Part shown: piece by piece, positions 7,438-31,927 of the stretch
Numbering within the stretch: the stretch's first letter is position 1
Layout of the letters: every line of letters starts with the position of its first letter
Assembly: GCA_016700375.1 (NCBI GenBank)
Contig: CP065016.1
Coordinates: forward strand, 120,001-152,000
Source of the DNA: Candidatus Saccharimonadota bacterium
GTDB lineage: Bacteria; Patescibacteriota; Saccharimonadia; Saccharimonadales; UBA4665
Direction of reading: 5' to 3'
Length of the DNA stretch: 32,000 bases
Program-made: the position numbers and the translations under genes
The notes under the pieces: model-generated
Told to the model about the DNA's origin: nothing
What the model saw: the letters and a program-made list of their open reading frames with translations, nothing else
Database searches by the model: none

Positions 7438-7442
7438 TCGCT

Positions 7443-7595
7443 ATGCTCCAATTACCAATTACCAATTACCAATTACCAATGAATTATCAATTTTCAGTTA
7501 CCAATGAAGCTGCAAATGCCACATCGCTACAAGCTAATGTATTGAAAATTGAAAATTGTAAACTGCAAATTGCAGCGACTGAAAGGAGTGTCTAA
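7443..7595 (+). CDS. Spacer-spanning mini-ORF A (50 aa) in the rpoB-rpoC heptamer-repeat spacer
   Basis: The product is MLQLPITNYQLPMNYQFSVTNEAANATSLQANVLKIENCKLQIAATERSV*. This is the only stop-free frame of the spacer. The ATG lies 5 nt after the rpoB TAG, with the SD GGGGAGGAGG inside the rpoB 3' end. The stop TAA overlaps the rpoC ATG (TAATG, 7593-7597). Repeat units are (CCAATTA)x4 at 7448-7475 and an ATTGAAA-type array at 7541-7575. Confidence 0.5.
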   Translation: MLQLPITNYQLPMNYQFSVTNEAANATSLQANVLKIENCKLQIAATERSV

Positions 7596-10500
7596 TGCGA
7601 CGCTATTCATACGGCACGAATATTGCAGATTTTGACGCAGTGCGTCTTGCTGTTGCCAGCAGCAAAGATATAGAAGATTGGAGCTACGGCGAGGTCCTGA
7701 AACCAGAGACCATAAACTACCGAACTCAAAAACCGGAACGCGACGGGCTGTTTTGCGAGCGTATATTTGGCCCAGTAAAAGACATAAACCCGCACGACGC
7801 GAAATACAAGGGAGTTCGCTCTCGCGAAGCTGCCGTTGATAAAAACGGTGAACTTGTTACGAGGAGCATCGTGCGCCGTGAACGCATGGGTCATATTAAC
7901 CTGGCCGTGCCGGTGGCTCACATTTGGTTCTTGCGGGGAACCCCAAGTGCCATGGGGCTGTTGCTCGGCATGACAGTAAAGAGTCTCGAGCGTGTCGCAT
8001 ATTTTGCCGCCTATGTCGTAAAAAGCGTTAATGTTGCTGCTCGTGACCAATATCGAGCCGACCAAGAAGCGCAGTGGCAAGCCGGACAGCAGGCAATCAA
8101 ACTTCGCTACGAGAAAGAAGCAGAAACCGAAGGCGCCGACGTGAAGGCGCTTGCTGAAGCCCAGACCAAAGAACTCGAACAGTTTGACAAAGAATGGGAA
8201 CTGCTTCGCAACCAGCTCGACAGCTTAGTCGCATTCAGTCTTATGAATGAGGGCGACTACCGTGCGCTACCCCGTGAGCTACGCGATATGATTACCGTTG
8301 GTATGGGCGGCGCCGCGCTGCGCGAGCTGCTTGAAGGTATTGACCTCGTGAAGCTGATAGCCGATTTGACCACTGAAGCCGAAGAAGCCAAGGGTCAGCG
8401 CAAGAAGAAGCTAATGAAACGACTCCGTTTGCTCGAAAGCATGGAGCGAGCAGGCATAAAGCCAGAAAGCACCTGCCTGTCGGTTCTACCGGTGATACCT
8501 CCGGACCTTCGTCCAATGGTACAGCTCACGGGTGGACGGTTTGCCACCAGTGACCTCAACGATTTGTACCGCCGTGTCATCAACCGCAACAATCGTTTGA
8601 AGAAACTTATTGAGTTGAATGCCCCAGAGGTTATTCGTCGCAACGAACAGCGAATGCTACAGGAAGCGGTCGATGCGCTCATAGACAACAACAATGCTCG
8701 CAGTGGCCGTGCTGTAGCAGCGACTGGTCAACGCCGTCGACTGAAGAGCCTAAGCGATATGCTGAAAGGCAAGCAGGGTCGTTTCCGCCAGAACCTACTT
8801 GGTAAACGCGTAGACTACTCTGGTCGTTCGGTTATTGTTGCCGGTCCAGAGCTTAAAATCAACCAGTGTGGTCTGCCAAAGATGATGGCCCTTGAGCTTT
8901 TCAAGCCCTTTGTTATTGGCGAACTCATTTTCCGAGAACAGGCACATAACATCCGGAGCGCCACGCGCATGATAGAAACTGGCGAGACAGAAGTATGGGA
9001 CGCACTTGACGAAGTCATTACTGGCAAATACGTCTTGCTTAACCGTGCCCCGTCACTGCACCGTCTGAGCATTCAGGCTTTCCAACCGGTACTGATTGAG
9101 GGTCGTGCTATTCAGCTTCACCCGCTTGTATGTAAAGGGTTTAACGCAGACTTCGACGGTGACCAAATGGCTGTCCACTTGCCGTTATCCGATGCGGCAC
9201 AGGCAGAAGCGCGTGACATCATGTCGGCAAACCGTAACCTCCTGAAGCCTGCCGACGGTTCTCCTATTTTGCACATTGAGCAAGATATTGTCCTTGGGTG
9301 TTACTACCTCACCTATGAACGCCCAGGTAAAGAAGTAGCTCCACGAGCATTTTCGAGCCTCAACGAAGCCTCTATGGCATTTGACGCTGGAGTCATAAAG
9401 CTCCAAAGCCGTGTCCTTGTTTCGTTCCGGGGTGAGATGCGCGTGACGACCCTAGGGCGCCTGTCTTTCAACGAAATTTTCCCCGAAGACTTTGCATTCC
9501 AAGATGAAGCCATGACGAAAAAGCGTTTGCAAAAAGTTATGGGCGCGGTTTACGCGCAGTATGGCCAGGAAAAAACGGCAGAAATTGCCGACAACCTCAA
9601 AGACCTTGGCTTCCGCTACGCAACCATGTCTGGCCTAAGCATGGGCATGGACGACTTCGAACCAATTACCGGGCTCGAAGACGTTTTGAAAGAAGGCGAA
9701 ACAAAGAGCGCTGGCATTTCAACCCAGTACGACCAAGGCTTCATTACCGACGATGAGCGACATCGTCTCACCGTAGAAAACTGGACCAAGATTGACACAC
9801 GTGTGCAAAACATGTTGTCAGAGCAGATGAAAGATCAAGACGGTTCTATGGCTATTGCTATTACTTCTGGTGCGCGCGGTAACGTTTCTCAGATGAAAAT
9901 GTCAGTCGGTATGCTTGGCGTGTTCCAAGATGCGGCTGGTAACGTCATTGAGCTTCCCGTGAAAGCCGGGTACATACAAGGCCTAACGCCGCTTGAGTAC
10001 TTTACCGGTACGCGTGGTACCCGTAAGGCGGTTATTGACATTGCCCTCAAGACTGCCGACGCTGGTTACCTAACTCGTCGCCTTGTCGACGTGTCCCAAG
10101 ATGTCTTTACCATAGACGACGACAGCGATGATGCGTCCGACCCAGGGTTTGCCTTGCTTCGCGCCGACGCTGCTGCCATAGGTGTTACCTACGCCTCACG
10201 GCTCGAAGGCCGTTTTGCCGCCGAAGACCTCAAGGGCTATGTCAAGGCCGGAGAGTTGTTTACGAAAGAAGTTGCCGAAGCTATCGACGCCGATGAAAAA
10301 CTCGACGGCGTCAAAATACGAAGCGCGCTGAGTGCCACATCGGTTCATGGCGTTCCGCAAAAGAGCTACGGAGTTGACCCAGCGACGGGCCATTTGGTTA
10401 CCAGCCATAACCCAATAGGTGTTATTGCTGCCCAGAGTATTGGCGAGCCGGGTACGCAGCTAAGCCTCGACAGTAAGCACCGTTCTGGTGCCGTCGTGGC

Positions 10501-11452
10501 CGATGACACCGCTCAAGGCTTGAGTCGTGTTGAGGAGCTTTTTGAAGCTCGCTCACCGAAGGGTCAGGCATATTTGGCTGATATCAATGGTGTCGTAAAC
10601 GCATGGGAAGAGGGTGAGCGCTACATTGTGCAAGTCACCGCAAATGACCGCGAAGTACTGGAAATAGTACTTGAAGGTCGCACGGCCAAGATTGCGAGCG
10701 GTAGTGATGTCGCCATTGGTGATGTTCTCGCCAGCCGTGAAGATGGCGCTGAGCCGCTTGTGTCGCCTATGGCGGGCAAGGCTGAACTGACCGATAAATC
10801 AGTCATCATCACCCCGACCAGCAAGAGTGTTGTTCGCTACGAAATCCCAGGCTTTAAACAGCTGCTTGTCCAAGACGGTGATGTCGTGGTGGCAGGCCAG
10901 CGTCTGACCAACGGTTCCATCAACCTGCACGACCTCATGCGTCTGCAAGGTGTTGAGCCGACGCAGCGTTACATCATGAACGAAATCCTCGGTATCTTTG
11001 CTGGGCAGGGGCAGAACATTAGTGACAAGCATCTTGAAATCATTGTGCGTCAAATGTTCAGCCGCGTTCAAATAGAAGATGCCGGCGATAGCGAATTTGT
11101 AACTGGTGACGTTGTGAGTAAGCTTGCTGTTGCCGAAGCCAACGAAGCACTTGTTTCGGCCGGTAAACAGCCCGCCAAGGTTAACCAGCTACTGCTCGGT
11201 ATTACCAAAGCATCACTTTCAACCGATTCGTTCCTGAGTGCTGCCAGCTTCCAGGACACTACTCGCGTCCTCATTGGTGCTGCCACCAGCGGTCGTATCG
11301 ACAAGCTGTTTGGCCTTAAAGAGAACGTCATCTTGGGTCGCAAGATTCCAGTTGGCACTGGCTATGGTGCAAGCAACGCACTCGATGAAGGTGATGACGT
11401 AGAGTTGGTTGAAGAATATCACAACGACCAAATCTTCCGCAACGAAGGGTAG
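7595..11452 (+). CDS. rpoC: DNA-directed RNA polymerase subunit beta'
   Basis: It has the NADFDGD catalytic motif (..GFNADFDGDQMAVHLPLS..) and full-length homology. The SD GAAAGGAG lies 8 nt upstream. Confidence 0.97.
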   Translation: MRRYSYGTNIADFDAVRLAVASSKDIEDWSYGEVLKPETINYRTQKPERDGLFCERIFGPVKDINPHDAKYKGVRSREAAVDKNGELVTRSIVRRERMGHINLAVPVAHIWFLRGTPSAMGLLLGMTVKSLERVAYFAAYVVKSVNVAARDQYRADQEAQWQAGQQAIKLRYEKEAETEGADVKALAEAQTKELEQFDKEWELLRNQLDSLVAFSLMNEGDYRALPRELRDMITVGMGGAALRELLEGIDLVKLIADLTTEAEEAKGQRKKKLMKRLRLLESMERAGIKPESTCLSVLPVIPPDLRPMVQLTGGRFATSDLNDLYRRVINRNNRLKKLIELNAPEVIRRNEQRMLQEAVDALIDNNNARSGRAVAATGQRRRLKSLSDMLKGKQGRFRQNLLGKRVDYSGRSVIVAGPELKINQCGLPKMMALELFKPFVIGELIFREQAHNIRSATRMIETGETEVWDALDEVITGKYVLLNRAPSLHRLSIQAFQPVLIEGRAIQLHPLVCKGFNADFDGDQMAVHLPLSDAAQAEARDIMSANRNLLKPADGSPILHIEQDIVLGCYYLTYERPGKEVAPRAFSSLNEASMAFDAGVIKLQSRVLVSFRGEMRVTTLGRLSFNEIFPEDFAFQDEAMTKKRLQKVMGAVYAQYGQEKTAEIADNLKDLGFRYATMSGLSMGMDDFEPITGLEDVLKEGETKSAGISTQYDQGFITDDERHRLTVENWTKIDTRVQNMLSEQMKDQDGSMAIAITSGARGNVSQMKMSVGMLGVFQDAAGNVIELPVKAGYIQGLTPLEYFTGTRGTRKAVIDIALKTADAGYLTRRLVDVSQDVFTIDDDSDDASDPGFALLRADAAAIGVTYASRLEGRFAAEDLKGYVKAGELFTKEVAEAIDADEKLDGVKIRSALSATSVHGVPQKSYGVDPATGHLVTSHNPIGVIAAQSIGEPGTQLSLDSKHRSGAVVADDTAQGLSRVEELFEARSPKGQAYLADINGVVNAWEEGERYIVQVTANDREVLEIVLEGRTAKIASGSDVAIGDVLASREDGAEPLVSPMAGKAELTDKSVIITPTSKSVVRYEIPGFKQLLVQDGDVVVAGQRLTNGSINLHDLMRLQGVEPTQRYIMNEILGIFAGQGQNISDKHLEIIVRQMFSRVQIEDAGDSEFVTGDVVSKLAVAEANEALVSAGKQPAKVNQLLLGITKASLSTDSFLSAASFQDTTRVLIGAATSGRIDKLFGLKENVILGRKIPVGTGYGASNALDEGDDVELVEEYHNDQIFRNEG

Positions 11453-11474
11453 TTGGTAGAGCAAAGTAAGTAGG

Positions 11475-11517
11475 GCAGAGGGCAGAGTTCGCTCGTTCTA
11501 GGGCGCCTCTGCTTTTT
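11475..11517 (+). terminator. Putative intrinsic terminator after rpoC
   Basis: GCAGAGG (11475-11481) pairs with CCTCTGC (11506-11512), followed by TTTTT. The loop is long, so the fold is uncertain. Confidence 0.4.
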
Positions 11518-11686
11518 GCTATAACGAGTATGTTGGGTAAACATTAGCTCTCTTACGCTATTTCGATTCACTCTCTCATTAAATGAGGTGAAGTGCTATC
11601 TGGGAAATCGTTGTCCCAAGTGAAATACCCCAAGAAAAGACGGGACATTGTATTGTGGCCTAGGTGTATCTATGGTGAACGTCATT

Positions 11687-13207
11687 CTACAGAGTAAGAA
11701 GGTCGATACTTCTAATAGATATACCCCGTCGAGATGCATGGTCTACCGCGATATATCCAATTGCATTGCGTAAATCAGGCAATGCATGCGAGTATGCTTC
11801 TTTCCTACTGCCCGCCGATTGTAAGCCGTGTTTTCGTGCGTAACGTTTCATCTGTGCTGGCAGCATGGCAAAGCTGTCGATTTGATCTCTTTCCTGGGCA
11901 AGGACCAGGTGCAGCAACTCTGTCGGTAAAATGAGTATCTGAGCAAGGACTTTATAGTCTTCACTTCTCATGTTGCGTAGATTAAGTAGACCTGACGAAT
12001 GAAGACTTATTGTTTTAGCACGGACGTTTTCAGGCGCAAGACCGAGTGCGGTAGGCATGATATTTACAATCCTGACGGGGTCTAACCCCAAAGCAGCCAT
12101 AAAAGCCATACGAGCCTTGAGACTCTCTGGACTAATACTAAGTATGGAGGGGCTAGAGTTGATAAGAGTAGCAGGTTCAAACCCTAAATCTCGGATTGTT
12201 TGAAACTTTAACTTAACATGTTCGGTCGAGTTGCCTAAGCTACGCGGATTTACAGTAAAAATTCGCCTAGCGTTTAACCCCAAGGCTGTTGCATTATCAA
12301 ATTTTGCTTGTATATTCTCAATCGACATGCCAAGCACTGAGGGAAGAAAATTGATTGTCTTGACAGGGTTAATCCCCAGTGAGATCAAGGCATTATACAT
12401 TTCACTGATAGCCCTAACAGACCTGCCAATGACAATAGGGTCTTTATGTATAAGTTTTAATGCATCAAATCCTAAATTAGTTAGATTCTCTACTTTATAC
12501 TTAACAGTGTCTACAGATAGGCAAATCGCAGTCGGATAGGTATTAATAATTGCTACAGCGTTGATGCCAAGTGCTGTCATGCTTTCAACCTTTGTTCTTA
12601 TGTTTTCGGTTGAATACCCTAGGGCTGTCGGCACTTTGGCGATAACCGTATGTGCATCTAGGCCTAGGGCTGAGATATTATCAAATTTTTTTTGTATCTC
12701 TTCCGGCGCTAAACCAAGTACAATGGGGTATTTATGTATAATTTCTCGTTCATCCATACCAAGGGAATGCAGATTTTCAATTTTTATTCTGATGTTTTTG
12801 CCTGAAAAGCCAAGCGCTGAAGGAAGGCCTTGAACGATACTCGTTACATCAAGCCCCGCAGCCGTCATCTCACGTAAAGCTTCTATAGTGGTGCCTGAGG
12901 GGAAAAGGGTCGGATAGCGGTCGAGTATCTTTATGTATGTGCTGTGCATGGGGTGGTCAGAGCAACTCCAGCCAAGACTCTCACCAAAAAAAATGCGGCG
13001 CGCTTCGACGGTCTTAGCGATGAGCGTTGGTTGGCTATGTGGATTCATAACGCACGATGCCTCTATGATTAAGGGGTTTAGAGCAGTGATCTCCTCTTCT
13101 ATAATAGCCCTATTTGCAAGCGCGCTAAACCAGACCGCATCATCTGGATGCAGCTGAACCGCAATGTCGTCACATTGCTCAACTAGTCTAACATTCAGCT
13201 CAGACAT
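11687..13207 (-). CDS. mTERF-like repeat protein (about 10 tandem 32-aa repeats)
   Basis: The 506-aa ORF has regular repeats, for example IIHKYPIVLGLAPEEIQKKFDNISALGLDAHT and VIAKVPTALGYSTENIRTKVESMTALGINAVA. Their consensus is I-x3-P-x2-L-x2-S-x-E-x-I-x2-K-x3-L-x2-LG-x5, which matches the mTERF motif as I recall it. TATAAT (13218-13223, minus strand) lies 10 nt before the ATG. The gene is convergent with rpoC. Confidence 0.6.
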   Translation of the reverse strand: MSELNVRLVEQCDDIAVQLHPDDAVWFSALANRAIIEEEITALNPLIIEASCVMNPHSQPTLIAKTVEARRIFFGESLGWSCSDHPMHSTYIKILDRYPTLFPSGTTIEALREMTAAGLDVTSIVQGLPSALGFSGKNIRIKIENLHSLGMDEREIIHKYPIVLGLAPEEIQKKFDNISALGLDAHTVIAKVPTALGYSTENIRTKVESMTALGINAVAIINTYPTAICLSVDTVKYKVENLTNLGFDALKLIHKDPIVIGRSVRAISEMYNALISLGINPVKTINFLPSVLGMSIENIQAKFDNATALGLNARRIFTVNPRSLGNSTEHVKLKFQTIRDLGFEPATLINSSPSILSISPESLKARMAFMAALGLDPVRIVNIMPTALGLAPENVRAKTISLHSSGLLNLRNMRSEDYKVLAQILILPTELLHLVLAQERDQIDSFAMLPAQMKRYARKHGLQSAGSRKEAYSHALPDLRNAIGYIAVDHASRRGISIRSIDLLTL

Positions 13208-13328
13208 AACTAATTACATTATAAAACTTAATGGCGCCAGTAGCAATATTGTATAGGAAGAGTTTTATGGAGCTCTGGGGTATATGAACTCCACATTAGG
13301 TGGGGCATTCTTAGTAATTAACGCACCG

Positions 13329-14636
13329 CTATCTACCGATGCCGCGGTAGTGGATGCCGGCTTTTTCTATAGCAGCTTTGTCTAACATGTTGCGACCGTC
13401 TAGTACGTAGCGAATATGGTGTTTTTTCAATAGCGCTGGTGTAAGTTGCTTTACAAAATCGCTGTGCGCGGTGGCGATGAAGATTGCATCTGAAGTGCGC
13501 AGGGCACTTTCGAGCGAGCGAGAGAGATGAAACGGTCGAGCTAGTTTTTCGTCCGATACATAGGGGTCATACGCAGTGACCGAACCAGCGTAGCGTAAGA
13601 GTACATAGCCAGCTTCTATGGCGGCAGATTTTCGCGTATCTGCTATGTCTGGTTTATAGGCGAGACCAAGTATGGCGACACGGAGGTCCCGCAGGTTTTC
13701 GCCGTGGTTTTTTATGAGTCCGCTCAGGCGTCGTACGGCGTACTTTGGCATCCGGTCGTTTAGCTCGGCGGCATCGTCTAAAAAGCGCGTGTCTATGCCG
13801 CTTTCACGGGCGCGCTTTATGACGTAGTGAATGTCCTCTGGTATACAGTGGCCACCGGGCCCTATTCCGGGTTGCGCCAGCCTGAGTCCAAACTGGTCTA
13901 CCTTGGACTGCAAACCTTCCATAACGCGACCAATATCCATCCCCACGCCGTCGCAGATAATCGCGGCGCTATTTGCCATGGCAATCATGACGTTCCGCTG
14001 GGTATTTTCCCACGACTTAACAAACTCTGCTTCTTCGGTAGAGCCAAGGGGAATAATTCGCGCATCGATAATGCTTTTATAAAACGCCACAGCTTTCTTG
14101 GTGCATTTTTCGGTAATCCCGCCGACTACACGGTTTAGGTTACCAACGTATAGCTTCGGGTTGCCGGGGTCAATTCTTTCAGGACAATGTGCCAGATAAA
14201 AATCTACCCCTGCTTTCATGCCAGATTGTCGCTCAAGTATTGGGAGTACTACGTCGCGGGTTACGCCTGGGTTTACGGTGCTTTCCAGCACTACGAGCTG
14301 GCCGGGACGCAGGTTTTTGGCGACGCTGCTGGTTGCGGCCTCAACAAGGCTCAAGTCTGGAATGTTGTGCTCAGTTGGAGTCGGCACGCATATGATGATA
14401 GTTTCTACGTCCTTCAGGGTTTGGTAGTCGGTCGATGTGTGCAGTTGCTTAGCTGGAACTTTTTTAATTGCTGCCTCAAACCGTGCATCATTTGCGTACG
14501 GAGAAGTCCGGCTGTCTATGAGCTTCAAGAGCCTGGTGTTAATATCTATACCAGTAACAGAATACCCTTTATTGGCTGCTTCAACCGCCAAGGGTAGCCC
14601 AACATACCCAAGACCCACTACAGCAAGTGTCTTCAT
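13329..14636 (-). CDS. Nucleotide-sugar dehydrogenase (UDP-glucose/GDP-mannose dehydrogenase family)
   Basis: It has an N-terminal Rossmann motif (VVGLGYVGLPLA), a catalytic-Cys region (GPGGHCIPEDIHY) and a C-terminal UDP-binding domain. The SD is AAGGAG. Confidence 0.85.
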   Translation of the reverse strand: MKTLAVVGLGYVGLPLAVEAANKGYSVTGIDINTRLLKLIDSRTSPYANDARFEAAIKKVPAKQLHTSTDYQTLKDVETIIICVPTPTEHNIPDLSLVEAATSSVAKNLRPGQLVVLESTVNPGVTRDVVLPILERQSGMKAGVDFYLAHCPERIDPGNPKLYVGNLNRVVGGITEKCTKKAVAFYKSIIDARIIPLGSTEEAEFVKSWENTQRNVMIAMANSAAIICDGVGMDIGRVMEGLQSKVDQFGLRLAQPGIGPGGHCIPEDIHYVIKRARESGIDTRFLDDAAELNDRMPKYAVRRLSGLIKNHGENLRDLRVAILGLAYKPDIADTRKSAAIEAGYVLLRYAGSVTAYDPYVSDEKLARPFHLSRSLESALRTSDAIFIATAHSDFVKQLTPALLKKHHIRYVLDGRNMLDKAAIEKAGIHYRGIGR

Positions 14637-16089: not shown

Positions 16090-16503
16090 TTGCCTACCAT
16101 TAACCAACTGGTACGCAAGCCACGCGTAAAGGTGACAACCAAGACCAAGTCACCGGCGCTGCAGCGCGTTACCAACAACCTCAAAACGAAGAGTTATGAA
16201 AAAGCTGCGCCGTTCAAGCGCGGCGTGTGCGTAAAAGTTACCACCAAAACACCAAAGAAACCAAACTCAGCCCTCCGCAAGGTTGCCCGCGTGCGCCTTG
16301 GTAACGGCTACGAAGTGTGGGCCTACATTGGTGGTGAAGGCCACAACCTGCAAGAACACGCCGTCGTTATGATTCGTGGTGGTCGCGTGAAGGATCTTCC
16401 TGGTGTGCGCTACCACATTGTGCGCGGCACACTCGACCTTCAGGGCGTCCAAAACCGCAAACAAGGCCGCAGTAAGTACGGCGCGAAGAAGGAGAGCAAG
16501 TAG
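16090..16503 (+). CDS. rpsL: 30S ribosomal protein S12
   Basis: The sequence is (M)[47 protein letters not shown] start at 16090 gives the canonical N-terminus, with GAAAGGGG upstream. Confidence 0.92.
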
Positions 16504-16508
16504 TCGCT

Positions 16509-16658
16509 ATGCTCCAATTATCAATTAGCAATTTACAATTTTCAATGAATGATCAATTAGCAATTACCAATGAAAAGCAGAATCGCCAATCGCTAATCGC
16601 CATTCCATCGATAATCGATAATCGAAAATCGGTAATCACGACTGAAAGGAGCCTGTAG
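16509..16658 (+). CDS. Spacer-spanning mini-ORF B (49 aa) in the rpsL-rpsG heptamer-repeat spacer
   Basis: The product is MLQLSISNLQFSMNDQLAITNEKQNRQSLIAIPSIIDNRKSVITTERSL*. The first 20 nt after and including the upstream stop (TAGTCGCTATGCTCCAATTA) are identical to spacer A. The stop TAG overlaps the rpsG GTG (TAGTG, 16656-16660). Degenerate CAATTAN and AATCGNN 7-mers are present. Confidence 0.5.
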   Translation: MLQLSISNLQFSMNDQLAITNEKQNRQSLIAIPSIIDNRKSVITTERSL

Positions 16659-17144: not shown

Positions 17145-17175
17145 AAGAGATAAGGAGTAAGAGATAAGAGTTAAG
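17145..17175 (+). repeat. Left arm of heptamer-repeat stem flanking the four-helix-bundle gene
   Basis: The units are AAGAGAT AAGGAGT AAGAGAT AAGAGTT AAG. Bases 17146-17168 are complementary to 17547-17569 at 21 of 23 positions, by hand alignment. Confidence 0.6.
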
Positions 17176-17177
17176 AA

Positions 17178-17543
17178 ATGGCTGTCAATAATTTCAAAGA
17201 CTTAATTGCTTGGCAAAAATCTCATCTCCTGGTGCTAGAAATATATACAATAACAAGCACTTTTCCAAAGTCGGAGCAATTTGGCTTAACGAATCAACTT
17301 CGTAGAGCAGCGGTCTCGATTGTGTCAAATATTGCCGAAGGTTTTGGCCGTCGGACTGTAGCAGATAGAACGCACTTTTACGATATGGCACGAGCATCAT
17401 TGCATGAAGTTCAAGCTCAGCTTATGGTTGCGCGTGATGTTGGCTTCATGCAAGACACTGTACATGAGAAAATCGATACATTCAGCATAGAATGCCATAA
17501 AATATTGACAGGCTTAATTAATAAAACAAATGGTACGAAATAA
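17178..17543 (+). CDS. Four-helix-bundle protein (23S rRNA intervening-sequence protein family)
   Basis: It has the characteristic sequence FKDLIAWQKSHLLVLEIY..FPKSEQFGLTNQLRRAAVSIVSNIAEGFGR. The length is 121 aa. Confidence 0.85.
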   Translation: MAVNNFKDLIAWQKSHLLVLEIYTITSTFPKSEQFGLTNQLRRAAVSIVSNIAEGFGRRTVADRTHFYDMARASLHEVQAQLMVARDVGFMQDTVHEKIDTFSIECHKILTGLINKTNGTK

Positions 17544-19686: not shown

Positions 19687-20103
19687 ATGAGTAAAAAACC
19701 GACTGATCTAGATGATGTGGTGAACGTTATCTCGGATTTGACCGAGTTGTTTTCGACGCGCTTCGATAAAATGGATCAGCGCTTCGACAAAATGGATGAA
19801 CGCTTCGACAAAATGGATCAGCGCTTCGACAAAATGGACGAGCGCTTCGACAAAATGGATGAACGCATCAACAGCATCGATATGCGCCTGTTTAGCGTTG
19901 AGCAGAAGCTACTGGAGCATGACGTACAATTCGCAAAAATCAATGAACGTATCGACCATCTCTACAGTGTGCTAGACAGTCACATGAAGCGGATTGAGGA
20001 TATCGTGGCTGACAATGTAGCCCGCGACGCGCAACAAGCGCGCATGGAAAAGTGGATTTTCCAAATTGCCGATAAACTTGACCTAAAACTGAATTACGAA
20101 TAG
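19687..20103 (+). CDS. Small coiled-coil protein with RFDKMD(Q/E) heptad repeats
   Basis: The 138-aa product has five perfect 7-aa repeats. Its C-terminus (ARMEKWIFQIADKLDLKLNYE) matches the paralogs at 3325 and 21630. Confidence 0.7.
   Translation: MSKKPTDLDDVVNVISDLTELFSTRFDKMDQRFDKMDERFDKMDQRFDKMDERFDKMDERINSIDMRLFSVEQKLLEHDVQFAKINERIDHLYSVLDSHMKRIEDIVADNVARDAQQARMEKWIFQIADKLDLKLNYE
19759..19863 (+). repeat. 21-bp tandem repeat x5 (coding)
   Basis: The unit is CGCTTCGA(T/C)AAAATGGA(T/C)(CAG/GAA/GAG), repeated head to tail. A sixth degenerate unit follows at 19864-19884. Confidence 0.9.
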
Positions 20104-21544: not shown

Positions 21545-21572
21545 TTTCACCTGGGATTACTTGCCCAACAGA

Positions 21573-21599
21573 GAAGCGCTCCACTTGGGGCGCTTTTCT
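21573..21599 (+). terminator. Intrinsic terminator after tuf
   Basis: AGCGCTCC (21575-21582), loop ACTT, GGGGCGCT (21587-21594), then TTTCT. Confidence 0.75.
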
Positions 21600-21629
21600 C
21601 GTGCTTCTTTATCGTGCTACAATACTGCT

Positions 21630-21867
21630 ATGAGTCAAGACGAGTTTAAAAAGCTGTTTCAGTATATCGAAGGGTTTCGAACGGAAGTCAGTCAACAGTT
21701 TGAGGCAAATACTCGTAAGCAAGATGAAACCATTGCTGCTGTAGCTGAGCTTGGTGGACATCTGCGGGATTATCGCAGAACTACTGGCGTTGAGCAGCAA
21801 AGTAGACCGATTGGAGAGATGGATTCAACAGGTTGCTCAAGTAACAGGGGTCCAGCTGCAGTATTAG
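21630..21867 (+). pseudogene. Small coiled-coil protein paralog with a +1 frame change
   Basis: The N-terminus (MSQDEFKKLFQYIEGF..) is in the frame of 21630. The family C-terminus (ELLALSSKVDRLERWIQQVAQVTGVQLQY*) is in the +1 frame, open from 21745 to the TAG at 21865-21867. TGcTACAAT (21615-21623) ends 6 nt before the ATG. Confidence 0.55.
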
Positions 21868-21893
21868 AGGCAGAAAGTATCTTTTGATCACAT

Positions 21894-21919
21894 GGCGCTC
21901 CACCTGGGGCGCTTTTCTT
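21894..21919 (+). terminator. Intrinsic terminator (near-copy of 21573-21599)
   Basis: GGCGCTCC, loop ACCT, GGGGCGCT, then TTTCTT. It differs from the tuf terminator at only a few positions. Confidence 0.7.
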
Positions 21920-21955
21920 GTATACAAAAACTTTCGGTATACTGTGTAGCACGCT

Positions 21956-22369
21956 ATGACGCACGAAACTAGCAAAGCATTTGTCGACTATTACCAGCTG
22001 CTTGGTGTTCAACCAGATGCAATGAACGAAGATATACGTACTGCGTTTGTTCGGCTTGCCAAGCTGCAACACCCTGACACTGGCGGTTCCCTTGAAGATA
22101 TGCAGCAGCTCAACCTCGCCTACATGACGCTTAAAAATCCTCAAACGCGGCGAGCATACGACATGATGCATAGCTTTCAAACAGGTACAAGCGAATTGCA
22201 TTATAGAGATATGCCAATGAGCGGCCACGCCGCAAAACCAAACGCCGAAGACGATGAAATAGACGATTTTATTAACGAAATCTTTGCCGAATACGCCGCA
22301 AAACCGTCGAAAAAACCCTTTCATAAAAAGGCCGCCTCCGCTCTCCGCTTCTACCGCAGAAAAACCTAA
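21956..22369 (+). CDS. J-domain protein
   Basis: The sequence DYYQLLGVQPDAMNEDIRTAFVRLAKLQHPDTGG..AYMTLKNPQTRRAYD carries the HPD motif. The product is 137 aa with no DnaJ zinc-finger region. Confidence 0.8.
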   Translation: MTHETSKAFVDYYQLLGVQPDAMNEDIRTAFVRLAKLQHPDTGGSLEDMQQLNLAYMTLKNPQTRRAYDMMHSFQTGTSELHYRDMPMSGHAAKPNAEDDEIDDFINEIFAEYAAKPSKKPFHKKAASALRFYRRKT

Positions 22370-22444
22370 GCCCGACACAACTTATCTGTGACAGGCTGTA
22401 AGGTATCTTACTGTCATTACCTGCTGGTGACCTATACTGCTGAT

Positions 22445-22957
22445 ATGCCAGAAATAATTGGGGATAATCCGGGTGGCCCGGATGAGGTTTGGGGAGGAAA
22501 ACAATTACATTTTGGCCCGTTGCTAGATGTGTTTGTGGGCGAAGAAATTATGGGAACTAGCGAGCGGCAGGAGCGTGTTTTTGCCGCATTTTTACACAGA
22601 CCGGGTGAGGTAGTCGAAAACGAAACCCTGCAAAAGTTACTAGAACCAGATTCCAATGTCCCCGAAGGTCTAGTTGGAGTGCTTGGTCTTTTGCGACTCG
22701 TACAGGGCATGAGCGGGCACCCAAAGGGAACGCTTGAATTTTCGAGCGGCGGAAAGCACGTAAGTTTTGCGCTACCGCCTACTCGGCCGTTTAATATCAC
22801 TAGTCTCGAGCAAAGCAAATCAGTAGTCAAAACTGCGCTCGAATCACCAAAAGCCAGAATCATAGGCGGATCTCTCATAGTTGGCGCAGCCGCAACAGCG
22901 GCATTTACGCGTCTAAAACAGGTACGCCAACAGCGAAAACATAGCGAACCGTCATAA
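22445..22957 (+). CDS. Hypothetical protein with C-terminal TM helix, apparently leaderless
   Basis: TATACT (22433-22438) lies 6 nt before the ATG at 22445. The C-terminal hydrophobic segment is IIGGSLIVGAAATAAF. The track start at 22388 (GTG) is less likely. Confidence 0.5.
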   Translation: MPEIIGDNPGGPDEVWGGKQLHFGPLLDVFVGEEIMGTSERQERVFAAFLHRPGEVVENETLQKLLEPDSNVPEGLVGVLGLLRLVQGMSGHPKGTLEFSSGGKHVSFALPPTRPFNITSLEQSKSVVKTALESPKARIIGGSLIVGAAATAAFTRLKQVRQQRKHSEPS

Positions 22958-22970
22958 CAAAGAACGCTGC

Positions 22971-22999
22971 TTGGCACAAATGCGCATACATGGTATGAT
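22971..22999 (+). promoter_or_regulatory. Putative rpsJ promoter
   Basis: TTGGCA (22971-22976), a 17-nt spacer, then TATGAT (22994-22999). It sits about 180 nt upstream of rpsJ. Confidence 0.5.
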
Positions 23000-23110
23000 T
23001 TAGCGGTAAACTAACAGCTTTGACTAAAAGCCGTGCGCGTTCCCAGGTGAATTCGTAAGGTGTTACAAGGCCAAACCGGGTGAAGCCGGCGGTTTGCAGC
23101 AAGGAATGTA

Positions 23111-23176
23111 GTGTGGATTTTCCTTACTACTCACACCTTACTACTTACTACTAACCTAAAATCCGGAGGATTTTAA
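23111..23176 (+). CDS. Possible mini-ORF J (21 aa) in the rpsJ leader
   Basis: From GTG the product is (M)[20 protein letters not shown], and the stop lies 2 nt before the rpsJ ATG. It is built on CTTACTA 7-mers like spacer H and its peptide resembles mini-ORF H (..TLTTYYLLLTT..). The weak start makes this tentative. Confidence 0.25.
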
Positions 23177-23178
23177 CC

Positions 23179-23511
23179 ATGGCAGAAGCCAAACAACCAG
23201 TACCGGGCAAGCAGCGAATTCGTATTCGCCTGAAGGCCTACGACCACAAAATCATTGACCAAGCCGCTAAGCAAATTGTAGATACGGCGCTTCGCACCGG
23301 CGCGAGCCTGGCTGGGCCAATCCCACTGCCAACGCGCAAGAGCACGTTTACAGTGGTAAAGAGCCCTCACGTGTACAAAAAAGGACGCGAACAGTTTGAA
23401 ATGCGTGTACATAAGCGCCTGATAGACGTCTTCGAACCGACCCCAAAGACTATCGATAGCCTCATGAACCTCTCTCTCCCCGCTGGCTGCGACGTCGAAA
23501 TCAAGATGTAA
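23179..23511 (+). CDS. rpsJ: 30S ribosomal protein S10
   Basis: The sequence is [60 protein letters not shown]. Confidence 0.96.
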
Positions 23512-23520
23512 CTTATTGGT

Positions 23521-24363
23521 CTAGCCAGCCTGTTTAATTGCTGCAATGTAATTTGGAAGCTGAAAAGTAAGCTCTATTTGACGAGGAGAGTCTGGCGATG
23601 CGCCATTAACTGCCCGCGTACATACTGTAGAATAATTAGGGTCGCTCACCAAGCGGTTATAAAAATCCATTCGTATGGAAGATAAGGTGTCTTCGTCCAA
23701 TGTTCTGTTGCCGACCCGATAGGGTGGCATAAAAGAGCCGCCAAGTTTAGAAGATAAACGAAGTGCGCTCTCACAAAAGCCATGATACTCTTCATCAAAC
23801 ACAGAGCCTGACAGTATCACCCCGCCAACCGCAAGGACACGCTTCATTTCATCTGCTAAAGCCAGAGCCTCATCCTGCGAAGGTGTCCAGTAAGATGCGT
23901 ATGAATCGTGTATGACATGAGCAGTTGCGTCTTTAAGTGTTCGAAGACCATCTAAGGCCAGTCCAGCTATAACGTCGTTTCCTGCGCTAGCTTGATACTG
24001 TGCGTTTAAGTCATCTTGTTCAAGGGCTATTCTACGGCTATTTCTGAACCAAGATAAAAAATCGGATCTTCCTGCGCCAATGTCGATAACTGTTTTGCCT
24101 TCGGCGAAGTTTGTTAGTGCTGCTAGGGAAATTCCGTGAGCACGAGCTAATTGCGAGCCGGTTCGGTCGGTACGTACTCGATCACTCGCTATACCTGAGT
24201 TCTTACGGTATGTAGTGAGCCGTGCGGTACATGCATTGACGGCAAGGGGTATTGCCGAATGTCCATCTATAACCGTACGCAGATTCTGTAAGTAAATGCT
24301 GGACGGTTCTGTGTCTACACGGTATCTAAATACATCTTGAGCCGTCCCAGTATGTCTCTGCAT
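23521..24363 (-). CDS. Class I SAM-dependent methyltransferase (putative), leaderless
   Basis: Motif I is [10 protein letters not shown], with a downstream [10 protein letters not shown] strand. ATG 24363 lies 7 nt after TGaTATACT on the minus strand (-10 at 24371-24376). The track start at 24393 is a TTG. Confidence 0.6.
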
Positions 24364-24422
24364 AGTATATAGTATATCATAAAATATAGACAAAGTAAAT
24401 AATATGTGCTATAATAGGAAGC
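24364..24422. promoter_or_regulatory. AT-rich divergent promoter region for two leaderless genes
   Basis: On the + strand, TGcTATAAT (24407-24415) ends 7 nt before ATG 24423. On the - strand, TATACT (24371-24376) lies 7 nt before ATG 24363. Confidence 0.55.
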
Positions 24423-26024
24423 ATGACGGTTGCTCCTAAGGTCGAGACAGCTGCAATGATGGAGGGTGCTGAAAAACCCTTTGAGGGCTTTGGTGCTGAA
24501 CTAGATGCAGCTAACTTTTACTTTAAGCACACGCACGCTATAGACCCGCAGCGCGTGGAGCGAGTAGTTACCTTATTAGAAGATTTTTCTGGTCCCAGAA
24601 TGAATTCGGCAGCAAAAAGCGCAGTTTTCTTAAGGGATATTTGCTCCGGCGTCGAAGATTCCTTGCTGGCACGTAATGCCACCTGGGCGCTGAATACGTA
24701 CCGCACTAATACCTTTGATACTGAAGAAACCCAAACGTATAAGCTGGCGATTGCTCGAGACGTTAAGCGAATTGACGATTTTAGTCGCGAGATGTTCGAA
24801 CAGGAGGCACGGACCTGTTCTGTTGCTGGTATGGTCTTTAGCGGTATTACACGAGTACTGAGCAAAAAAGAGCGCCGGGCGCACCAAGACCAACGGTGGT
24901 TGCGCGATTCTAACGCAAATGCTGGCGAGCTCCAAGAGCTTCTCGATACCAATAAACGGGCCATAAACCTTGAAGCAATGGTACACTACAGCGCCGAGGT
25001 GCTGGATGATCTCATGGTCGCTACCGGAGCGGTAGACGGCGTAAGGATGCCCGATGACGAAGTTCTCATGCGCAGAATCAGAGATGTAGATGTCATTTTG
25101 GGGCCGTTCCTGGAGATTATTGGGCATGATGGCATGGCAATGGCGCTCAGAAGCCATGCGAATATAGTTCGTCTACAAAAAACCGGGAACGTAGCCTTTG
25201 TCGACAGGGCAAAGAACATGCTCGAGCAATATACCGATAGAGAATATATTGCCGGCCAAATCGAAAAACTTTACGGGGAGCTTTTTGGAGGCGACAGCGT
25301 TGTAGAGCATGTTATTAGCAACAAAACCCAACACGGTATAGCCGTAGGTGAATCTGCATTTCGCTGGAGTGAATGTTATGCGAATGCTCGTGCGGTGTGG
25401 CGCGTAAAATCAGTTGGCTCGCTTGCAATGAAATTGTATCGGTACAGTAAAGAAGGGAAATCAACTGCGACGCCGCAAGATGTTATCGGTGTAACGCTCA
25501 TCACTGACGACCCTGAACAGCTGAATAGCCTTTATCCCATGCTAGTTTTGAGCGTAGAATCATCACAAGCCATTAAGACGACTGTCGCCCCAAGCAAGAA
25601 GAGCGCCTATCATGTTCGGGGTGACGAGTTGTATGTGGAATTGATTTCTAAAGTGGTAAGCGAGCAATTCACTGAGGATGCCTGTACATTGCTTAGTCTC
25701 AGCCCGGTAGAAATAGATACCAAGAACGACGAAAATAACCTTCATCAAACCGCAAAAGCGACATTTACGTTTCATGCTTTGCCGCTTGAAGTGCAGTGCC
25801 AGACAGAATGGGCACGTGAGCGTTCTCGTATTGGAGCGGGCGCACATGGTTTTCATAAAAGCGGCGTCAGAGAGTTAAACCAGCATTTTATAACACAACT
25901 CCATAGTAGAAGGGCTGAATTAGGCACCATGGAGCTCACGAAGGCAAGTGCCGATAGTACCAGAAGATTTATGTCAAGCGCCGCTCAGAGAGGCATACCA
26001 CCGGTAAACTACGGCATTGTTTAA
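24423..26024 (+). CDS. RelA/SpoT-domain nucleotidyltransferase-like protein with unknown N-terminal region of about 300 aa
   Basis: The C-terminal half carries the ordered synthetase-type motifs WRVKSVGSLAMKL, DVIGVTLI, KKSAYHVRG and PLEVQCQTEWARERSRIGAGAHGFHK. These correspond to RxKS..S..K, D..G.R.I, Y.S.H and EvQIRT..h.wAe..H..YK. No HD hydrolase motif was recognised. Confidence 0.6.
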   Translation: MTVAPKVETAAMMEGAEKPFEGFGAELDAANFYFKHTHAIDPQRVERVVTLLEDFSGPRMNSAAKSAVFLRDICSGVEDSLLARNATWALNTYRTNTFDTEETQTYKLAIARDVKRIDDFSREMFEQEARTCSVAGMVFSGITRVLSKKERRAHQDQRWLRDSNANAGELQELLDTNKRAINLEAMVHYSAEVLDDLMVATGAVDGVRMPDDEVLMRRIRDVDVILGPFLEIIGHDGMAMALRSHANIVRLQKTGNVAFVDRAKNMLEQYTDREYIAGQIEKLYGELFGGDSVVEHVISNKTQHGIAVGESAFRWSECYANARAVWRVKSVGSLAMKLYRYSKEGKSTATPQDVIGVTLITDDPEQLNSLYPMLVLSVESSQAIKTTVAPSKKSAYHVRGDELYVELISKVVSEQFTEDACTLLSLSPVEIDTKNDENNLHQTAKATFTFHALPLEVQCQTEWARERSRIGAGAHGFHKSGVRELNQHFITQLHSRRAELGTMELTKASADSTRRFMSSAAQRGIPPVNYGIV

Positions 26025-26901: not shown

Positions 26902-27041
26902 AAATGAATAGATTACCCATTACCCTGTCACCTGTCACCTTGGATTATCCTGTAGCCTGTCACCATGGTTATACGTCACAGGTTACACCTACGTCACACG
27001 TCACACGTGACACGCTAATCAGCGATGAAAGGAGCTTCTAA
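26898..27041 (+). CDS. Spacer-spanning mini-ORF C (47 aa) in the rplC-rplD spacer
   Basis: The product is [47 protein letters not shown]. The start overlaps the rplC stop (ATGA, 26898-26901) and the stop overlaps the rplD ATG (TAATG, 27039-27043). The 7-mers are ATTACCCx2, TGTCACCx2, GTCACACx2 and GTGACAC. Confidence 0.5.
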   Translation: MKMNRLPITLSPVTLDYPVACHHGYTSQVTPTSHVTRDTLISDERSF

Positions 27042-28114: not shown

Positions 28115-28228
28115 ATGAATCATGAATCACGAATCATGAATCTAGCATGGGAAGTTATCGGCCGCAAGGCGGCAGGCATGATTCATACTACATACTTCAT
28201 GCTTCCGCGACTGAAAGGAGCTGCATAA
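28115..28228 (+). CDS. Spacer-spanning mini-ORF D (37 aa) in the rplW-rplB spacer
   Basis: The product is MNHESRIMNLAWEVIGRKAAGMIHTTYFMLPRLKGAA*. The ATG lies 1 nt after the rplW TAA, with AAGGAGG in the rplW 3' end. The stop overlaps the rplB ATG (TAATG, 28226-28230). It is a paralog of mini-ORF E. Confidence 0.55.
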   Translation: MNHESRIMNLAWEVIGRKAAGMIHTTYFMLPRLKGAA

Positions 28229-29680: not shown

Positions 29681-29797
29681 ATGAATAAAGAATCAAGAAT
29701 CATGAATCATGTTAAGGAAATTATCAGCAGCGAAGCTGCTGGCATGATTCATACTTCATACTTCATGATTCAGAAGCCGGAGGATATATGTCTGTAA
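29681..29797 (+). CDS. Spacer-spanning mini-ORF E (38 aa) in the rpsS-rplV spacer
   Basis: The product is MNKESRIMNHVKEIISSEAAGMIHTSYFMIQKPEDICL*. The ATG lies 1 nt after the rpsS TAG. The stop at 29795-29797 lies 7 nt past the rplV ATG at 29788. Confidence 0.5.
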   Translation: MNKESRIMNHVKEIISSEAAGMIHTSYFMIQKPEDICL

Positions 29798-31495: not shown

Positions 31496-31608
31496 TGAGG
31501 TATAAGCATTCAGCGGAAAGGGGTAAGGGGTTTTCGTCTAGAACCCTTACTACTTACTACTTACTACTTACTACTTCTGAAGTGATGCCCGAAGGGAGGA
31601 ACGTATGA
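31495..31608 (+). CDS. Spacer-spanning mini-ORF H (37 aa) in the rplP-rpmC spacer
   Basis: The product is [37 protein letters not shown]. The start overlaps the rplP stop (TAATG, 31493-31497), and the stop overlaps the rpmC ATG (ATGA, 31605-31608). A (CTTACTA)n array runs about 31546-31576. The hairpin is GTAAGGGGTT..GAACCCTTAC. Confidence 0.5.
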   Translation: MRYKHSAERGKGFSSRTLTTYYLLLTTSEVMPEGRNV

Positions 31609-31805: not shown

Positions 31806-31927
31806 TGGAAAATCCAAATTCCAAATTCCAAACTCCAAACAAATTCCAGCACTCAAATTCCAACGAAGCTCATTTGGAACTTGGAACTTGGAACTTGGAG
31901 CTTACAGCTCCTGAAAGGAGTCTGTAG
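31805..31927 (+). CDS. Spacer-spanning mini-ORF I (40 aa) in the rpmC-rpsQ spacer
   Basis: The product is MENPNSKFQTPNKFQHSNSNEAHLELGTWNLELTAPERSL*. The start overlaps the rpmC stop (TAATG, 31803-31807). The stop TAG lies 2 nt before the rpsQ ATG. The CCAAATT-type array faces a complementary GAACTTG x3 array. Confidence 0.5.
   Translation: MENPNSKFQTPNKFQHSNSNEAHLELGTWNLELTAPERSL

Follow-up and report, generated by a model that had tools for sequence, protein, structure and literature searches.

A gene for a 506-residue tandem-repeat protein lies between rpoC and rpsL in a stretch of 32,000 nucleotides from a Candidatus Saccharibacteria chromosome (positions 120,001 to 152,000 of contig CP065016.1, hereafter the window). 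By homology and by fold its product is an mTERF (mitochondrial transcription termination factor) protein. Our best explanation, to which we give a probability of roughly 0.6, is that the gene encodes a Saccharibacterial prokaryotic mTERF-like repeat protein acting as an accessory, strain-specific and sequence-specific DNA-binding factor. Its homology to human MTERF1 and to the prokaryotic mTERF-like proteins named pTERF makes sequence-specific binding of double-stranded DNA (dsDNA) the most likely activity. The protein is probably a transcriptional regulator or roadblock at sites elsewhere and not a partner of rpoC. In the mechanism that we propose, a promoter of its own would drive transcription of the gene, which lies on a 1.8-kb cassette that is missing or replaced in related strains. 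A periodic basic stripe, with Lys or Arg at unit position 26 and in many units at positions 24 and 7 too, would hold the DNA backbone, and the residues around the short helix of each unit (positions 12, 14, 17 and 18) would set the sequence specificity.

Homology, fold and repeat architecture

The original prediction assigned the protein to the mTERF family from its repeat consensus, I-x3-P-x2-L-x2-S-x-E-x-I-x2-K-x3-L-x2-LG, which fits the units exactly. Sequence models, family profile and fold all agree with this assignment. The Pfam hidden Markov model of mTERF (PF02536) matched the window protein over three stretches with an E-value of 2e-25 and a score of 89.8 bits, well over the gathering threshold of 23.1, and it also matched all 40 of the 40 aligned family members. 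None of the NCBIfam models matched the window protein. When the window protein was used as a single sequence to search the PDB sequences, MTERF1 alone was recovered, and weakly. With a profile built from the 40-sequence family, the same collection yielded MTERF1 (E=1e-12), MTERF4 (2e-10) and MTERF3 (4e-9), with nothing from any other family of helical repeats.

An AlphaFold model of the window protein, calculated with the family alignment as input, reached a mean predicted local distance difference test score (pLDDT) of 94 and a predicted template modelling score of 0.84, with helical residues from 21 to 493. By DSSP, each 32-residue unit of this model contains three helices, 7, 5 and 13 residues long. 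This agrees with the mTERF motif, a repeat of about 30 residues in which two alpha-helices are combined with a short, 3-10-like helix opening at a conserved proline. The N-terminal domain, the nine 32-residue units and the C-terminal domain are thereby predicted to form one continuous helical-repeat protein. Foldseek comparison with solved structures returned mTERF proteins for all of the best 12 matches. The model superposes on MTERF1, MTERF3 and MTERF4, with target-normalised template modelling scores (TM-scores) of 0.60-0.61 for MTERF1 (5crk/5cky) and 0.64 for MTERF3, the latter with a root-mean-square deviation of 3.2 Å. The same fold result was obtained with an earlier low-depth AlphaFold model. 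HEAT, TPR and PPR families were absent from the Pfam matches at E<=1 and from the Foldseek matches to solved structures; no better match to another helical-repeat family thus displaces the mTERF signal, and the assignment stands. Moreover, no Pfam, PDB-sequence or fold match linked the window protein to transcription activator-like effectors (TALEs).

Eukaryotic mTERF proteins have their genes in the nucleus and are imported into mitochondria or plastids, a trait that a gene in a bacterial chromosome does not share. Nuclear encoding and import characterise those named proteins and not the fold. Two other domain assignments were rejected. Pfam ENCP4 (PF08967) was matched by 9 of the 40 family members (alignment A2) with seemingly strong E-values, and this looks like a short helical similarity multiplied by the repeats. 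The UBA-type domains reported in two Bacillota proteins with 35-residue units (L005 and L007) are seemingly not real domains either, a short helical similarity being multiplied there by near-identical repeats.

The period of the repeat is sharply defined. BLOSUM62 autocorrelation over residues 91-420 peaked only at lags of 32, 64 and 96 (values of 1.12-1.29), compared with a maximum of -0.29 in 200 shuffles. Nine clean units, flanked by degenerate units at both ends, account for the "about ten" repeats of the original count. Compared in pairs, the units share on average about 27-32% identity as protein and 43% as DNA, and the repeats are therefore old and diverged. Pro13 is nevertheless present in nine of nine units, and position 26 is Lys or Arg in eight of them. 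From unit 1 to unit 9, the residues at positions 12, 14, 17 and 18 read LSGF, YIGL, VTGY, YTCL, DIGR, LSGM, NRGN, SSSI and MTGL. The GenBank accession of the protein is probably QQS69640.1, judging from the numbering of its neighbours (RpoC, QQS69639.1; dehydrogenase, QQS69641.1; membrane protein, QQS69642.1, locus tag IPP75_00635). Its exact sequence, taken with each of four possible start codons, was not found in a collection of 15 billion proteins.

The repeat family and its variable positions

The family profile was searched against 1.84 billion representative proteins (50%-identity clusters), and 1,709 matches were obtained at E<=1e-3, 686 at E<=1e-10 and 156 at E<=1e-30. Proteins of this type had been described as rare in bacteria; with 156 clusters at the strictest threshold the family is large in metagenomes, and pTERF proteins were published in 2024 (PMC11417379). 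Family members share an architecture of N-terminal domain, three to nine detected 32-residue units and C-terminal domain. The N-terminal domain (about 105 residues) is common to 126 of the 157 retrieved sequences, and the C-terminal domain (about 85 residues) to 102. One branch (P0002-P0006) comes from another Candidatus Saccharibacteria metagenome-assembled genome (MAG). The few matches with a 36-residue period look eukaryotic. Three of these (P0116, P0125 and P0140) are mTERF proteins of 498-872 residues with near-identical 36-residue units (...FPSVLGYSIEANLKPTVEW...) and an algal or plant-like appearance; they match the bacterial profile with E-values of about 1e-36 to 1e-40, a point relevant to identifying the lineage that donated the family.

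The gene contexts of six other family members are all different. No conserved neighbourhood was found across L001-L003, L004, L008, L009-L010 and L011, and some members adjoin transposase or integrase genes of the IS1595 or rve type. No family copies were found in phage, plasmid and IMG/VR collections, and a phage or plasmid origin was set aside for lack of matches there. PADLOC (defence) and PHROGs (phage) families gave no match for the window protein. The PHROGs matches of P0007 and the weak Cas6 match of P0002 were also discarded, as they are short, in most cases fail the per-stretch threshold and seem to arise from the repeated sequence. No mTERF protein is listed in the annotation tables of Southlakia epibionticum. 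A metagenome scan with alignment A1 returned one locus, and a repeated word-index search with alignment A2 returned the same six proteins.

Near-identical units inside one protein are common in the family (87% identity in P0007, 82% in P0002). Differences between the units of a protein were scored in 26 such members, and they peak at positions 12, 14, 17 and 18 (0.70, 0.59, 0.53 and 0.55, respectively). The remaining positions among 1-24 gave 0.05-0.30, and positions 25-32 gave 0.11-0.52, partly from degenerate terminal units. At the codon level in P0007 and P0003, pairwise differences at the four positions were 91 non-synonymous versus 12 synonymous, whereas the other codons among 1-24 showed 14 non-synonymous versus 89 synonymous; the pairs are non-independent, but the contrast is nonetheless extreme. 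Judged from these codon patterns, the scaffold is under purifying selection or homogenisation, and positions 12, 14, 17 and 18 diversify. The alleles P0002-P0006 differ by whole 32-residue units (334, 366, 398 and 430 residues) between flanks that are 99% identical, length differences that could also come from collapse of repeats in short-read assemblies.

In MTERF1, direct base contacts are made by R162, R202, R251, R350 and R387 (PMC4705650). HMMER alignment places R202, F243 and R350 at unit position 14, i.e. at the residue after the conserved Pro, R162 at position 11 and R251 at position 22. The residue numbering was fixed by the F243A substitution visible in 5CRK. In the family as a whole, Lys or Arg occupies position 26 in 92% of 483 units, and 74% have a basic residue at position 7. 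From the alignment to MTERF1 and the conserved basic residue at position 26, the variable positions therefore lie on the base-reading face of MTERF1, beside a periodic basic stripe.

A bolder interpretation, tentative and on balance unlikely, is that the Saccharibacterial 32-residue family forms a natural modular DNA-recognition system. Positions 12, 14, 17 and 18 would then be under diversifying selection on a scaffold in concerted evolution, entire repeats would be gained and lost from strain to strain, and entire genes would be swapped at chromosomal slots, in the service of epibiont-host or anti-mobile-element conflict. If true, the family would provide the first readable "mTERF code". To our knowledge, no recognition code is known for mTERF repeats.

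A strain-variable cassette beside rpoC and the possible functions of its gene

The mTERF gene belongs to a 3,987-bp minus-strand block between rpoC and rpsL, in which genes for a 328-residue membrane protein and an NDP-sugar dehydrogenase precede it. It was originally placed at the head of this block and is actually the last of the three in transcription order. Its convergence with rpoC (7595-11452, plus strand) was borne out, as was the AT-richness first noticed by eye: the overall GC content and that at third codon positions (GC3) are 0.440 and 0.406 for the mTERF gene, 0.525 and 0.540 for rpoC, and 0.511 and 0.523 for the dehydrogenase gene. Low GC3 is inconclusive as proof of horizontal transfer, since other non-core genes of the window have comparably low values (0.336 for a gene of the intervening-sequence type, 0.368 for orf23521).

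Comparison with related strains delimits the variable part. At the DNA level rpoC is 97% identical between these strains and the window, and the dehydrogenase and membrane-protein genes are 93-94% identical; homology breaks at 11512/11513 and at 13335/13336. Three strains (L013, L014 and L015) have 159 bp in this slot, the dehydrogenase gene being followed by about 160-210 bp and then by convergent rpoC. In two others (L016 and L017), the slot is occupied by an unrelated 1,813-bp cargo that encodes an ArsR-type helix-turn-helix protein of 105 residues and a 447-residue protein. This alternative cargo (L016:2482-4155, L017:2438-4093) pairs an ArsR/Csa3-like winged-helix protein with a protein for which no Pfam, PADLOC or PHROGs match was found. 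According to the strain, the same slot is empty, mTERF-bearing or ArsR-cargo-bearing, so that accessory genes are exchanged in the 3′ flank of rpoC. At the cassette ends we found neither a target-site duplication nor a transposase nor a terminal repeat in common; the only motif noted, on the right-hand side of the slot, is weakly conserved. More than one mTERF gene per locus was never seen among the examined loci.

Because the cassette has its own promoter-like site and is lacking or replaced in related strains, the gene is considered accessory and strain-specific. Horizontal acquisition, proposed earlier for the entire 4-kb block, is favoured by the accessory status of the 1.82-kb cassette (11513-13335) and does not extend to the block as one insertion, since this segment alone varies and the other two genes are kept in place. 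No Shine-Dalgarno sequence is visible ahead of the mTERF gene. Taken together, the promoter-like site, the cassette boundaries and the terminator that rpoC itself possesses make the mTERF gene a self-contained accessory unit, whose convergence with rpoC reflects the position of the slot and not a functional link.

Several observations weigh against a sequence-specific DNA-binding role. Eukaryotic mTERF proteins also bind RNA. For the 32-residue branch, we infer DNA binding from homology, and the tie to pTERF1 runs through a proxy, the 35-residue-period protein of a Bacillota MAG (L005). The overall isoelectric point (pI) of the window protein is near neutral (7.7; family median 6.6). The residues that would set its specificity are for the most part hydrophobic or small and polar, unlike the arginines of MTERF1, and the pattern of variable positions is seen in its relatives and not in the window protein itself, the repeats of which have diverged. 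Finally, a candidate with a 32-residue period, PKP57946.1, was negative in the 2024 screen (PMC11417379).

These points leave room for other functions. The window protein could bind RNA in the manner of plant mTERF4 or human MTERF4 and act on rRNA, intervening sequences or introns. Intervening sequences and introns are frequent in Patescibacteria (the candidate phyla radiation (CPR), phylum of Saccharibacteria), a gene for a four-helix protein of the 23S-rRNA-intervening-sequence type lies 4 kb away, and the fold matches of the window protein model include MTERF4 in complex with mitoribosome assembly intermediates. We regard this role as rather improbable: housekeeping RNA maturation fits poorly with presence or absence of the gene among strains with 97%-identical rpoC, DNA-bound MTERF1 gives the best matches by structure and by profile, and the published prokaryotic relatives bind dsDNA (PMC11417379). 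An effector by which the epibiont reprograms host transcription in TALE fashion, or a sequence-specific factor directed against mobile elements, would suit the diversification of four repeat positions on a conserved scaffold, the allele differences of whole units between 99%-identical flanks, the strain variability of the gene and the transposase or integrase genes beside some homologues; Saccharibacteria live as epibionts on host bacteria. Such a role is nonetheless improbable, as inspection by eye without a predictor reveals no signal peptide or known secretion signal in the sequence, PADLOC and PHROGs gave no matches, phage or plasmid copies were not found, and the differences in repeat number could be assembly collapse in short-read MAGs. 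There is also a slim chance that the protein is a helical-repeat scaffold for protein-protein interactions, without a nucleic-acid ligand. Its near-neutral pI, its acidic N-terminal domain and the largely hydrophobic or aromatic nature of the variable residues would agree with this, but Lys26 is conserved in almost all units, the variable positions coincide with a base-contacting position of MTERF1, and nucleic-acid binding is the activity described for the characterised eukaryotic mTERFs and for the pTERFs (PMC11417379).

Two functions suggested originally are tied to the window itself, and the evidence turned out against both. In one, the protein would act as a roadblock terminator at the convergent 3′ end of rpoC and either protect transcription there or bring it to an end. 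The gene is indeed convergent with rpoC, and MTERF1 is reported to work as a polar roadblock (PMC13646843, PMC4705650). However, rpoC has its own hairpin and U-tract, this element and the convergence persist in strains that lack the mTERF gene, and six other family members stand in unrelated contexts, so that this function is largely refuted. The other, a reader of the heptamer tandem repeats in the intergenic spacers of the region, draws on the presence of ten period-7 arrays in the window and is hardly credible: the strain of L016 keeps the heptamer spacer between rpoB and rpoC with other cargo in place of the mTERF gene, no heptamer arrays occur in about 80 kb around members in L001, L008, L009 and L011, and the heptamer sequence changes from spacer to spacer. 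An accessory, sequence-specific DNA-binding factor remains the explanation that we prefer.

Features of the mTERF cassette and repeat arrays of the window (positions in the window; strand as + or -, or. for none).
Feature	Position	Strand	Remarks
Gene for 506-residue mTERF-like (pTERF-type) tandem-repeat protein	11687..13207	-	Open reading frame (ORF) intact
N-terminal helical domain, residues 1-116	12860..13207	-	Acidic, pI 4.8; motif LGW-x-x-x-HP-x-H
Nine tandem 32-residue mTERF units, residues 117-404	11996..12859	-	Three helices per unit: 7, 5 and 13 residues
C-terminal helical domain, residues 405-506, and stop codon	11687..11995	-	pI 9.8
Strain-variable cassette	11513..13335	.	1,823 bp, GC 0.43; absent or replaced in close relatives
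Sigma-70-like promoter candidate TTGCTA-17-TATAAT	13218..13246	-	Ends 10 nt before the mTERF ATG
rpoC intrinsic-terminator-like hairpin and U-tract	11474..11518	+	In sequence kept by strains without the mTERF gene
Period-7 arrays	7438-7594, 16607-16637, 17145-17176, 26991-27014, 28115-28142, 29681-29711, 31546-31576, 31809-31839, 31874-31903		

Other features of the window were recorded. The ten period-7 arrays have about 3.4-4.7 copies each of differing heptamers, and the ones checked fall within short spacers between genes of the rpoBC, str and S10 operons. The rpoB-rpoC spacer (157 bp) is present in the window and in L016 and absent in L013, where the rpoB stop codon TAA, a single G and the rpoC ATG follow one another. 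It has inverted ends (GTCGCT...AGCGAC), supplies a GGAG ribosome-binding site and behaves like a small insertion element. Inserted between rpsG and fusA is the 23S-rRNA-intervening-sequence-type four-helix-bundle gene (17178-17543, plus strand; PF05635, E=4e-35), which has the lowest GC3 in the window. Between fusA and tuf lies a 138-residue coiled-coil ORF (19687-20103, plus strand), in which 4.9 copies of a 21-bp tandem repeat (19758-19860) encode (E/Q)RFDKMD heptads; its exact sequence was not found in the protein collection. From tuf to the L3/L4 genes (21561-26024) the region is interrupted by several unannotated or unusual genes, namely a 108-residue ORF, a DnaJ-domain protein (21956-22369), a 189-residue ORF, a 290-residue minus-strand ORF and the 533-residue hypothetical protein QQS69653.1, and rpsJ (23179-23511) sits among them. 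Finally, rpsL (16090-16503, plus strand) has a TTG start at 16090 preceded by GGAGAAAGGGG, and its accession (QQS70133.1) is out of series with those of its neighbours.

Comparison with known mTERF-like and TALE-like proteins

Prokaryotic mTERF-like DNA-binding repeat proteins are already known, and the window protein is a divergent addition to them. The Saccharibacterial 32-residue branch and its four-position variability are apparently undescribed: our literature search found no paper pairing mTERF with Saccharibacteria, Patescibacteria or CPR, and neither Saccharibacteria nor Patescibacteria appear in the main text of the pTERF report, nor Saccharibacteria in those of its supplements that were examined (PMC11417379). 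A 2026 paper on plant mTERF proteins reported mTERF to be absent from bacterial genomes (PMC12977773). The present family constitutes a second, much larger mTERF branch, with its own architecture, in Saccharibacteria and related metagenomic lineages. It bears on the origin of mTERF proteins and offers a natural starting point for the question of how mTERF repeats choose their targets. In these reduced genomes, moreover, the 3′ flank of rpoC serves as a slot for the exchange of accessory genes.

The pTERF proteins (Nucleic Acids Res 2024;52:10464; PMC11417379, the single paper on prokaryotic homologues that our search found) comprise about 46 homologues with 3-11 units, mostly from Bacillota, and are reported to be nanomolar, sequence-specific dsDNA binders. 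pTERF1 (MBQ3414883.1, from a rumen Clostridia MAG) has a 35-residue period and binds ACTNNNAGTC with a Kd of 1.87 nM, as established by electrophoretic mobility shift assay, biolayer interferometry and reporter activation; the motif recognised by pTERF2 is a different one (PMC11417379). The window protein resembles them in its bacterial MAG origin and its head-to-tail three-helix units, and its nine units fall within the published 3-11. It differs in having a unit of 32 instead of 35 residues, the 3-residue difference falling after the LG turn of each unit, in its N- and C-terminal domains, and in its phylum, Saccharibacteria as against mostly Bacillota. It also carries a strong canonical Pfam mTERF signature and the conserved Pro, which pTERF1 lacks (PMC11417379). 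The Bacillota loci L005 and L007 have 35-residue units of the form LGYSHEDVIKMTKxLPSLYxYSIENIKQKIEDLIS, and from these sequences we infer that they are pTERF-type loci. The L005 protein aligns with the window protein in BLASTP with an E-value of 2e-27 and 26% identity, again with a 3-residue difference per unit. In both loci, the variable residues gather around the conserved Pro and the short helix, and their placing relative to the Pro matches that in the 32-residue family.

Human MTERF1 (PDB 3MVA, 3N6S, 5CRK) shares the repeat fold of the window protein (target-normalised TM-score 0.60), is recovered by the family profile (E=1e-12) and likewise has a Pro opening the short helix. The position that follows this Pro contacts bases in MTERF1 (R202, F243, R350) and is hypervariable in the bacterial family. 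MTERF1, however, has about eight irregular, interspersed motifs, is nuclear-encoded and is imported into mitochondria, whereas the window protein has nine strictly periodic units and is encoded in a bacterial chromosome. Sequence identity between the two is 15-18%, and the arginines with which MTERF1 reads its bases are not retained.

TALE and TALE-like proteins (AvrBs3, Bat/BurrH, MOrTL, STAR) also consist of near-identical tandem repeats of about 32-35 residues with few variable residues, and, as in TALEs, repeat number varies between alleles among the relatives of the window protein. The TALE unit, however, has two helices, unlike the three-helix mTERF unit, and its fold is unrelated. TALEs have a repeat-variable di-residue (positions 12-13 of a 33-35-residue repeat), in contrast to the four variable positions described here, and no secretion signal is evident in the window protein. 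The likeness to TALEs is best understood as an analogy of design and not as family membership.

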